Shown here: positions 2,943-5,323 of the stretch, one piece after another
How positions within the stretch are numbered: the stretch's first letter is position 1
Layout: the number at the start of each line of letters is the position of its first letter
DNA from: Promethearchaeia archaeon
GTDB lineage: Archaea > Asgardarchaeota > Lokiarchaeia > Sigyniarchaeales > SOKP01
Length of the DNA stretch: 27,704 bases
Assembly: GCA_029856155.1 (NCBI GenBank)
Contig: JAHQWL010000066.1
Span: 1-27,704 of the forward strand
Direction of reading: 5' to 3'
Translations under genes and position numbers: made by a program
The notes under the pieces: generated by a model
What the model was told of the DNA's origin: nothing
The model's input: the letters and a program-made list of their open reading frames with translations, nothing else
The model's database searches: none

Positions 2943-3764
2943 ATGATTAAATTATTGATCTTAGGGCCAACTGGTTTTACTAGCAAGCTAATAAGTAAAT
3001 TAGCAATAGCAGACCAAGAAATAAATGTTGTGGCGGCATGCGATATCACTAATATTGGTGATGATTTAGGTTTATTAATAGGTGTAAAAGATCCAAATAA
3101 TATAAAAATAAATGATATAAATAATCTTCAAAAAGTAATTAATGAATCTAACCCAGATGTAGTAGTAGATTTTACAGTGGCACAAGCAACTGAAAAAAAT
3201 TGTATAATATGTGTTGAGAACGGAATACGATGTGTAATTGGTACCACTGCATTGTCAGAAGAATTTTTAAATAAATTTGAAGAACTTGTTAAAAAAAATA
3301 AAGCACCAGCGGTTATATCACCTAATATGGCTACTGGAATAAATATACTCTTTAAAATGGCATCAATACTCACTAAATATTTAGCTGATTGGGATATTGA
3401 AGTGTTAGAAGCGCATCATCATAGAAAAGTTGATGCTCCAAGCGGTACTGCAATGAAAATTGGACAAATAATAAGTAATGAACTTGGTTCTAATTTTGAA
3501 GATATTGCTAAATTTGGTCGGAGTAGGGGACCTAATAAGCGCTCAGTTGGCGCCAAAAATGAAATTGGAATTCATTCTATTAGAGCGGGTGATATTGTAG
3601 GAGATCATACAATATTGTATTGTGGACCAGGAGAAAGAATTGAATTGAAACATCAAGCTCATAGTAGAGAATGCTTTGCTAACGGGGCAATTGGAGCAAT
3701 TAAATTTATTTCAACTGCTAAAGAAAATAAGATATACTCCACAAGTGAAGTATTAGGCTTATAA
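2943..3764 (+). CDS. dapB: 4-hydroxy-tetrahydrodipicolinate reductase
   Basis: VDFT, IGTT, PNMATG, EAHHHRKVDAPSGTA and IHSIRAGDIVGDH motifs. Confidence 0.96.
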   Translation: MIKLLILGPTGFTSKLISKLAIADQEINVVAACDITNIGDDLGLLIGVKDPNNIKINDINNLQKVINESNPDVVVDFTVAQATEKNCIICVENGIRCVIGTTALSEEFLNKFEELVKKNKAPAVISPNMATGINILFKMASILTKYLADWDIEVLEAHHHRKVDAPSGTAMKIGQIISNELGSNFEDIAKFGRSRGPNKRSVGAKNEIGIHSIRAGDIVGDHTILYCGPGERIELKHQAHSRECFANGAIGAIKFISTAKENKIYSTSEVLGL

Positions 3765-3798
3765 AAGGAAATCTTCTTGATAATAAAGCTAATAGATA

Positions 3799-3950
3799 AG
3801 ATAAAATTATAAAAAAGATCAGTGCAGATCAGTATTATCATCAATCTTCTTAGTTGTAAAACTTTACATAGATTTCATTTTGCCAACACTTCATCGAGAG
3901 CATTAAGGGGTATCCAAGCCCTAATCGTCCCAATTTTTATAATTTTATCT
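3799..3950. repeat. Perfect 17-bp inverted repeat enclosing 118 bp
   Basis: 3799-3815 AGATAAAATTATAAAAA is the exact reverse complement of 3934-3950 TTTTTATAATTTTATCT. Confidence 0.9.
3817..3931 (-). ncRNA. Candidate structured RNA with C/D-box or K-turn-like motifs
   Basis: On the minus strand: 5' hairpin 3931..3896, AUGAAG (3894..3889), AUGA (3878..3875), UGAUGA (3843..3838), CUGA (3832..3829 and 3822..3819), then a U-tract. Stems AGUGUUG/UAAUACU and AAUCU/AGAUU each adjoin tandem GA pairs. G.U pairs work only on the minus strand. Confidence 0.55.
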
Positions 3951-4009
3951 CAATATAATAATAATAGACTTAAATTTTTATTTTTGTTGTTTGACCAAAG
4001 TAAAAAGAA

Positions 4010-5323
4010 TTATTTTAAATAATCCGGAACTGTTTGATTTCTAATTAGATCATCAAATGTTTCTTCATTACGGATTTTGTATAAATTACCATCATTTATT
4101 AATAGTTCTGCAGGTCTAGGTCTTGAATTATATGGGCTACTCATTGTATATCCATAGGCACCAGCATCTAAAATTGCTAGATAATCTCCTTCGTTCAATT
4201 CGGGTAATTCTCTGTCTTTGCCGAGGACATCTCCCGATTCACATATAGGTCCTACAATGTCATATTTTAATATTTTTTTTTTGTGTTTCTCGTTGCAATT
4301 TATTATATGATGATATGAACCATACATCGTGGGTCGAATTAAAGTGTTAAATCCCGCATCTAACCCGGCAAATAATTTATAACCATTATCTTTTATGGTG
4401 TTTATTTGTGTTAAAATAATGCTTGATTCTGCTGAAATATAACGTCCTGGTTCAATAAAAAGAAATGGCTCACCAATTTCGCCTTTTTCTACAATTTCTT
4501 TAAATCTAGTAAACACAATTTCGCTATATATATTTAAATCAAGGGGATCCTGTTCTGGACGATAGGGAATTCCAAGACCTCCACCAAAGTCTACAAACTC
4601 AAATTGAATCCCTAATTGCGATGACAATTTTTCTATAATGGTTATAAATTTCTCAATAGGTTTTTCATAATCTTTTGCGTTAATAATCCCTGACCCGATA
4701 TGTTGGTGAATCCCGAATTTTTTAAAACCCAAGTCCCTTGCCTTAGAATACACTTTAATCATCTGATTCTCTAATATACCGAATTTAATCTCCTTCCCTG
4801 CTGTTATGGTATGAGGATGATGTCCAGCCCCAAATTCGGGATTAAATCTAAAAGAAAGGATTCTTTTATCTTTTCCATTTTTTTCATATAAGTTTGCTAA
4901 CCTAATTAATTGACTATAGCTGTCTAAGTTCGTTAATATATCATTATCAATAGCAAATTTGAAATCATTATTCGTGAACATATTTCCGGTATAAATTATT
5001 CGTTCTGGGGAGATACCTGAACTTAAACAAGCATGGATCTCTCCTGTTGATGAGCAATCAAAATTCGATCTTTCAGAAACTAGTATTTTTAAAATCGATA
5101 AATTAGTATTTGACTTTACAGCAAAGTAAATCTTATTTTTTTTATATCCTGAATTCAATGTATCTTTTAATTCTCGATATCTCTTTCGAATCGTTTTTTC
5201 ATTTATAATATAAATTGGAGTTCTGAATTTTTCTGCAATTCCTAATGTGTTTAAATTGGCAAAATAAAGACCTCCATCTCGATATTCTAAATCTTTCCTG
5301 CTCAACCAGTCAATATAATTCAT
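4010..5323 (-). CDS. lysA: Diaminopimelate decarboxylase
   Basis: FAVKSN (PLP Lys), KFGI, HQHIGS, DFGGGLG, EPGRY, GPICESGD, GAYG and YNSRPRPAE motifs. Confidence 0.97.
   Translation of the reverse strand: MNYIDWLSRKDLEYRDGGLYFANLNTLGIAEKFRTPIYIINEKTIRKRYRELKDTLNSGYKKNKIYFAVKSNTNLSILKILVSERSNFDCSSTGEIHACLSSGISPERIIYTGNMFTNNDFKFAIDNDILTNLDSYSQLIRLANLYEKNGKDKRILSFRFNPEFGAGHHPHTITAGKEIKFGILENQMIKVYSKARDLGFKKFGIHQHIGSGIINAKDYEKPIEKFITIIEKLSSQLGIQFEFVDFGGGLGIPYRPEQDPLDLNIYSEIVFTRFKEIVEKGEIGEPFLFIEPGRYISAESSIILTQINTIKDNGYKLFAGLDAGFNTLIRPTMYGSYHHIINCNEKHKKKILKYDIVGPICESGDVLGKDRELPELNEGDYLAILDAGAYGYTMSSPYNSRPRPAELLINDGNLYKIRNEETFDDLIRNQTVPDYLK

Follow-up and report, generated by a model that had tools for sequence, protein, structure and literature searches.

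A probable, enlarged box C/D sRNA gene between dapB and lysA of a Lokiarchaeial genome, with a predicted target in helix 34 of 16S rRNA

In a 27,704-nt stretch of DNA from a Promethearchaeia archaeon (contig JAHQWL010000066.1, here called the window) the genes dapB and lysA converge on a gap of 245 bp, with dapA upstream and dapF downstream, in a genome of 30% G+C. A first-pass annotation made from the sequence alone had placed an unannotated structured RNA of about 115 nt, with C/D-box or K-turn motifs, in this gap. The locus raises the question of what kind of RNA is encoded there, how far it extends, and which molecule it might act on. The sequence that had been described is present in the gap, at 3817-3931 on the minus strand, and ARAGORN detected neither a tRNA nor a tmRNA in the window. 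From the evidence presented below we consider it very probable that the minus strand from 3951 to 3798 encodes a box C/D sRNA of about 154 nt, with a promoter of its own, which is predicted to guide 2'-O-methylation in helix 34 of 16S rRNA (Table 1). Function and target, as predicted, belong to a known and ancient type; the scaffold is lineage-specific and enlarged.

Table 1. Positions in the window of the putative sRNA, its parts and the two neighbouring genes.
Feature	Position	Strand	Description
dapB	2943-3764	+	273 aa; uninterrupted reading frame, full Pfam domain cover
lysA	4010-5323	-	437 aa; uninterrupted reading frame, full Pfam domain cover
Predicted promoter	3974..3988	-	AACAAAAAUAAAAAU; A-rich BRE followed by TATA box
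Terminal stem, 5' arm	3934..3951	-	GAGAUAAAAUUAUAAAAA; partner 3815-3798; predicted 5' end of transcript at 3951
5' accessory hairpin	3896..3931	-	Conserved loop yUGGAUAC (loop 3912-3920); outer and inner stems covary
Box C	3888..3894	-	AUGAAGU; consensus RUGAUGA; AUGAUGA in three lineages
D' spacer	3879..3887	-	9 nt, GUUGGCAAA; orphan
Box D'	3875..3878	-	AUGA, degenerate CUGA; GA invariant, directly followed by C-stem AAUCU
C-stem of internal K-turn and apical hairpin	3843..3874	-	AAUCU/AGAUU
Box C'	3835..3841	-	AUGAUAA; preceded by loop nucleotide R at 3842; UGA invariant
D guide	3823..3834	-	12 nt, UACUGAUCUGCA; complementary to 16S rRNA helix 34
Box D	3819..3822	-	CUGA; invariant in 24 blastn-collected genus sequences
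Terminal stem, 3' arm	3798..3815	-	UUUUUAUAAUUUUAUCUU; partner 3951-3934; U-tracts may also act in termination

The limits first drawn around the RNA were too narrow. Conservation within the genus runs past them on both sides into two complementary arms of 18 nt, and the RNA is for this reason longer than had been assumed: in the genus alignment the invariant block 3951-3934 is the reverse complement of the downstream block 3815-3798, and the two belong to the RNA as an 18-bp terminal stem. With both ends as predicted, the RNA of ~154 nt (3951..3798, minus strand) folds at -37.3 kcal/mol (z = -4.5), and none of 200 shuffled sequences was as stable. The 126-nt piece considered by the earlier reader, when folded alone, is no better than shuffled sequence (z = -1.0). 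The element is kept at full length, at the same locus and with 75-94% identity, in 24 of 25 genomes of the same genus. There is one full copy of the sRNA per genome, and no paralogue carrying the same 5' hairpin was found in the genome analysed here. At all loci for which flanks were recovered, across genera, the sRNA adjoins lysA, dapB or both, and mostly lies between the two.

Covariation in relatives, a kind of check that the first-pass annotation had proposed, was assessed on an alignment of 48 sequences from 12 genera, which were gathered by means of the guide motif, so that conservation of this motif within the set does not count as evidence. Support from the alignment extends to four helices: the terminal stem, the hairpin on the 5' side, the internal K-turn stem, and one not previously drawn, next to boxes C and D. 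Over the whole proposed structure 88% of the cells are paired and 23 of 39 pairs have changed on both sides; these values were matched by none of 500 shuffles, and shifting the partner columns brought pairing down to 42-52%. In the terminal stem, 92% of the cells are paired and half of the pairs (9/18) display changes on both sides. Its arms are wholly different and GC-richer in several genera, in some of them free of T-tracts, and still complementary; the stem is, as judged from these substitutions, an RNA helix and not a conserved DNA word. Since it is an uninterrupted duplex, it is without a bulge-helix-bulge motif for processing by an endonuclease.

Two of the elements described earlier gained support from the same alignment. 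The outer and inner stems of the 5' hairpin are paired in 72% and 83% of cells, respectively, with compensatory changes present, and the AAUCU/AGAUU helix is paired in 95% of cells, with all five pairs changed on both sides. The apical hairpin above this helix covaries within the genus. In the loop of the 5' hairpin GAUAC-C is invariant in all 48 aligned sequences. A separate observation concerns the same loop: together with its closing pairs (GG-CUUGGAUAC-CC, loop 3912-3920) it resembles a stretch of helix 24 in 16S rRNA of the genus (GG-AUUAGAUAC-CC, 16S ~739-752), a likeness that may be either mimicry or coincidence.

The fourth helix bears on the assignment of the boxes. The earlier reading as a box C/D RNA with the order C-D'-C'-D holds as to type and order, but its register had to be corrected. 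The helix AGUGUUG/UAAUACU proposed at first breaks down at its central pair, where U changes to A while the partner stays A, leaving 33 of 48 cells unpaired. The AGnGU that follows box C instead pairs, in 88% of cells, with a GCnCU made up of the last guide nucleotides and the CU of box D; the central pair of this helix is AU in 22 sequences and UA in 15. On this evidence the AGnGU/GCnCU helix beside box C/D replaces the one drawn earlier, and therefore box C reads AUGAAGU and box C' AUGAUAA, with a canonical D guide of 12 nt and a short D' spacer of 9 nt. The assignment to the minus strand, which had been argued from G.U pairs, is confirmed by such pairs in the alignments.

The consensus sequences are RUGAUGA for box C and CUGA for box D. 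The box C found here is off the archaeal norm at position 5, where A stands instead of U, and its AUGA and G6 are invariant in the 48 sequences. Compared with the archaeal spacer norm of ~12 nt, the C'-D spacer measures 12 nt and the C-D' spacer 9 nt. Boxes C and D can form tandem G.A pairs followed by the covarying AGnGU/GCnCU helix, and are in this way able to form a K-turn. The internal pair C'/D' flanks the covarying C-stem, consistent with a second K-turn, in which boxes D' and C' together with the C-stem would adopt standard geometry with a 3-nt bulge, RAU. In size, too, the RNA departs from its kin: ~154 nt, with an 18-bp terminal stem and an inserted hairpin of 36 nt, stand against a compact archaeal norm of ~50-70 nt and a short terminal stem, which makes it roughly three times as large as usual; compact size, however, is typical of the archaeal C/D family and not mechanistically defining. 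The way in which the additions are attached recalls the k-junction, reportedly a K-turn elaborated into a three-way junction and ascribed to Wang, Daldrop, Huang and Lilley in 2014. At the level of secondary structure only, the end helix of the C/D K-turn in the Lokiarchaeial RNA is likewise split, with the bulged strand leading into the 5' hairpin and the other strand into the terminal stem.

The putative gene appears to have its own promoter. With the first G of the 5' arm as reference point, the 48 upstream regions from the 12 genera display a conserved element at -37..-23 from G3951, consisting of an A-rich part (-37..-31) and a TATA-like part (-30..-23), and the position before the G (-1) was a pyrimidine, with G at +1. 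This spacing of BRE and TATA is the usual one for archaea, and transcription would consequently start at G3951, with which the terminal stem begins, and not at the GGG. The TTATAT upstream of that GGG, to which the first-pass annotation had drawn attention, is not the conserved promoter; it sits between the BRE/TATA element at 3988-3974 and G3951. At the other end, the U6 tract with which the 3' arm begins (3815-3810) could terminate some transcripts before the stem is completed.

What the RNA might act on was approached by comparing its parts with host rRNA, a check also suggested at the outset, and this comparison gave the D guide a specific target in helix 34 of 16S rRNA. The 16S rRNA sequences were taken from three genomes of the same genus, the assembly itself being without a 16S gene, and the pairing is identical in all three. 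The guide pairs with 16S nt 1157-1168 (GCAGGUCAGUAU) over 12 contiguous bp, of which 11 are Watson-Crick and one, at guide position 6, is G.U. The pairing spans guide positions 2-13 upstream of CUGA, and so ends one nucleotide before the box. As a control, 1000 shuffled guides were compared with 16S and 23S rRNA together, and only 2 of them matched as well; the target segment is invariant in five further rRNA genes sampled across the phylum. By the fifth-nucleotide rule the residue to be modified would be the first G of CAGGUC, 16S nt 1160 in the numbering of the genus. The D guide thereby offers what is expected of an antisense element, i.e. at least 10 nt of complementarity next to D or D' with the target at the fifth pair. 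As a side observation, the 16S rRNA match in a genome that belongs to a different family of the phylum (L220, G307:C5:332567-335232) spans ~2.67 kb, compared with 1478 positions in the model, which implies a large insertion or intron in that gene.

The pattern of conservation in the guide agrees with this pairing. Among 24 genus sequences collected with blastn, positions 2-13 are invariant but for one substitution in one species, and position 1 and positions beyond 13 (e.g. 14) vary; such variation fits, because only positions 2-13 would pair. In some lineages the G.U pair has been turned into G-C. Positions 1-3, which the proposed structure also places in the helix next to box C/D, would have to open for the target. 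Of 161 genomes of the class, 100 carry a 15-nt motif of guide plus D box (ACTGAYCTGCNCTGA), at about one copy each, whereas the reversed-pattern control gave 1 match; in a sample of 301 genomes from the phylum, 66 have the motif (5 matches with the reversed control).

We take the target G to be equivalent to E. coli position ~1197 in the 3' strand of helix 34, presuming our manual alignment and the numbering we used to be right. In Dictyostelium, CD1 has been drawn with the pairing AACAG*GUCUGUG, guiding 17S-Gm1506 (PMC8817022, Fig. S6), and in this paper and two others Gm1506 is equated with yeast Gm1428 (snR56), human Gm1490 (U25) and Arabidopsis Gm1431/1434 (AtsnoR19). The predicted target G is, by sequence comparison, homologous to Dictyostelium Gm1506, to yeast Gm1428 (snR56) and to human Gm1490 (U25).

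No convincing target was found in 23S rRNA, whose gene in this genome (C34:3761-7141) spans 3381 nt compared with 2987 positions in the archaeal model, which suggests sizeable expansion segments. The sequence of the D' spacer differs between genera; its best rRNA match is no better than those of shuffles (677 of 1000), and no match was seen among the 23 tRNAs detected in the genome. Orphan guides are common, making up 28% in Pyrobaculum (PMC6009581). As the D' spacer is short (9 nt), variable and without a target, the RNA effectively has one guide. A further match of the D guide lies in a tRNA of the 16S-23S spacer, where the guide pairs with the acceptor/D-arm (UGUAGAUCAGUG) over 12 bp including two G.U, and would put G10 at the fifth position (loci L032 ~3060-3150, reverse complement, in G069, and L033 and L034). 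This second match is possible because the Lokiarchaeial guide has U where other archaea have C, and it may be coincidental.

Taken together, these features would allow the RNA to act in the following way. Boxes C (AUGAAGU) and D (CUGA) would form one K-turn, and boxes C' (AUGAUAA) and D' (AUGA) a second one closed by a stem-loop; both would bind L7Ae, after which Nop5 and fibrillarin would join. Pairing of the 12 nt that precede box D with the 3' strand of helix 34 would bring the first G of CAGGUC to the fifth nucleotide counted from the box, where fibrillarin would 2'-O-methylate it. The 5' hairpin would enter at the C/D K-turn, creating a three-way junction, and the 18-bp terminal stem would constitute the other lineage-specific addition. 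Protein binding and methylation are both predictions in this scheme, and that the hairpin and terminal stem stabilise the RNP, or help it to dock on pre-16S rRNA, are guesses on our part. Fibrillarin and Nop5 (aNOP56) are encoded by adjacent genes on one contig (C83) of this genome. L7Ae (125 aa) is encoded in 29 of 31 genomes of the genus; L7Ae (eL8) was not found in the present assembly, which is 97% complete, nor in one other of the same genus (G021), and the sole match to the L7Ae family in the present assembly is L30e (C72:22250-22528). The absence here most likely reflects a gap in the assembly. A strict regular expression detected no canonical double-guide sRNAs in this genome, and a looser scan of it for rRNA-antisense 10-mers beside D-like boxes was too noisy to be used.

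The unusual scaffold invites other explanations. One of them holds that the K-turn RNA is mainly a chaperone of rRNA folding or processing for the 30S head, in the manner of U14 and snR10, instead of or besides directing methylation. The scaffold of about three times the usual size, with additions that are conserved and covary, speaks in favor of such a role, as does the hairpin loop yUGGAUAC, which is invariant, complementary over 7 nt to 16S 1034-1040 (GGUAUCC), and similar to the loop sequence of 16S helix 24 (AUUAGAUACCC). However, a 7-nt match is expected ~0.3 times by chance in ~4.9 kb of rRNA, half of this particular match (CCC) lies inside the stem of the hairpin, and other lineages have GGUGUCC at the 16S site, which for this reason yields no covariation signal. 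Moreover, other archaea have compact sRNAs with the same guide, and we regard the chaperone explanation as improbable. A related proposal would keep the guide function and treat the enlarged scaffold as functional too: through the clamp and the 5' hairpin the RNA would have a second part to play, in how the 30S head folds or assembles, and it would stand midway between the minimal guides of archaea and eukaryotic snoRNAs with several functions, such as U14. To this we assign a small, though not trivial, chance. That the sequence is instead a cis element of the lysine genes, acting as a bidirectional terminator or insulator or as a 3'-UTR regulator of lysA, might be read from its usual position between convergent lysA and dapB across the family, and from U/A-rich arms with T-tracts on both strands. 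The conserved BRE/TATA at correct spacing nevertheless belongs to the sRNA itself, and lysA has a T-tract of its own that directly trails its stop codon. In addition, the arms are GC-rich and T-tract-free yet complementary in some genera, and an element of this kind would leave the invariant guide, the boxes and the rRNA complementarity unexplained. Such a function is therefore very improbable.

Perfect inverted repeats of 17-18 bp flank the element and partial second copies exist in four species, as might be expected of a non-autonomous mobile element (MITE) or of an invertible segment with terminal inverted repeats. This interpretation is at odds with the presence of one complete copy in each genome (the 18-mer of the inverted repeat is not a recurrent motif of the genome and has a single further exact match, within a coding region), with the syntenic position across genera, with arm changes that are compensatory and G.U-compatible on one strand only, and with the absence of target-site duplications and of a transposase, and its probability is close to nil. 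The same low probability applies to the likenesses to a U3-like processing RNA and to a SECIS element that the first-pass annotation had pointed out, based on a 5' hairpin with two K-turn motifs in the former case and on AUGA...GA quartets in the latter. The guide follows the geometry of a methylation guide, and the D guide is in fact a standard one; the 5' hairpin is situated inside the terminal stem and not outside it, whereas a U3-like RNA would have a 5' domain beyond the C'/D stem that pairs with the pre-rRNA leader and with the 5' end of SSU rRNA; and the D guide is the only element with a recurrent match to 16S rRNA or its flanks in three genomes. As to SECIS, lysA and dapB are intact and without in-frame UGA, and the AUGA/GA motifs are accounted for as the two K-turns.

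The preferred reading as a box C/D methylation guide also has to be placed among known RNA families. A search of Rfam, named as a check in the first-pass annotation, assigned the element to 0 families at gathering score. In E-value mode almost all weak matches are to C/D snoRNA families, the best being snoR19 (RF01595) with 29.1 bits against a threshold of 60; SNORD25 is absent even among the weak matches. RF01595 has the same name as the Arabidopsis guide for the same rRNA site. We rejected homology to this family, from whose consensus guides the antisense element is absent, and take the score to reflect similarity of boxes and AU-rich sequence.

The guide itself is more widespread than the scaffold. 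The enlarged scaffold, i.e. the clamp, the yUGGAUAC hairpin and the stem-closed internal K-turn, was seen in a single family of Lokiarchaeia, and variants of it in two sister families; other Asgard families have the guide in compact sRNAs at other genomic positions. With a longer pattern, extended by the preceding box, matches were obtained in Pyrobaculum oguniense, Vulcanisaeta, Thermofilaceae, Geothermarchaeota and Nitrososphaeria, in a list which also holds bacterial entries, two of them chance-like; in the archaeal matches the guide is found in textbook C/D sRNAs of ~50 nt. The same guide occurs in Pyrobaculum calidifontis sR32 (PCAsR32), which is listed with RNA-seq read counts (Dennis et al. 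2015, PMC4644070 supplement). This sRNA and the compact sRNAs of Vulcanisaeta, Thermofilaceae and Nitrososphaeria have the same antisense ACUGAcCUGC upstream of D or D', the same predicted target in 16S helix 34, and the same K-turn logic of boxes C and D. They differ in build: the sR32-type RNAs (~50 nt) have a C'/D' loop of 3-12 nt and two 12-nt spacers, and are without a long terminal stem or a 5' hairpin, whereas the Lokiarchaeial RNA (~154 nt) combines a clamp of 18 bp with an accessory hairpin and an internal K-turn closed by a stem, and has only one usable guide. Its guide also has U where theirs has C, which results in the G.U pair.

On the eukaryotic side, snR56, SNORD25 (U25), AtsnoR19 and CD1 guide the homologous G (Gm1428, Gm1490, Gm1431-1434 and Gm1506, respectively) with the same fifth-nucleotide geometry, methylation in the Lokiarchaeial case being predicted. 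The Lokiarchaeial RNA is, like many snoRNAs, long and effectively single-guide. However, these eukaryotic RNAs have no detectable homology to it outside the guide and the boxes and, unlike it, their terminal stems are short and enclose no 5' hairpin. As the guide is also found in Thermoproteota, the target does not represent a link specific to Asgard archaea and eukaryotes; rather, since Thermoproteota and every eukaryote covered by the cited tables share it, it seems to rank among the most ancient guided modifications of rRNA.

Our results add a well-supported and previously uncurated RNA gene to Lokiarchaeial genomes, and with it the prediction that their 16S rRNA is 2'-O-methylated at a specific site of the decoding region. 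They also suggest that an archaeal C/D guide can bear large conserved additions, here a three-way junction at the C/D K-turn and a long clamp, around a single working guide, and an RNA of this build would be missed by sRNA gene finders tuned to 50-70-nt RNAs. The scaffold also bears on the possible origin of the longer and more varied snoRNAs of eukaryotes. The practical value is modest, as function and target are of a known kind.

A last observation concerns partial second copies of the sRNA, which were seen in four species of two genera, 1.1-1.5 kb downstream of the full copy. They extend from about box D' (from box C in G009) to the 3' arm, and are located at L006:2693-2884 in G009, and at L075:~1560-1720, L076 and L077 in G123, G128 and G134; in G009 the copied stretch includes the 3' end of dapB. 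A single unrelated gene separates the two copies, of the isochorismatase family in one case and with a 4Fe-4S ferredoxin domain in another, and no integrase was seen. The arrangement looks like the insertion of a gene with duplication of the 3' half of the sRNA.
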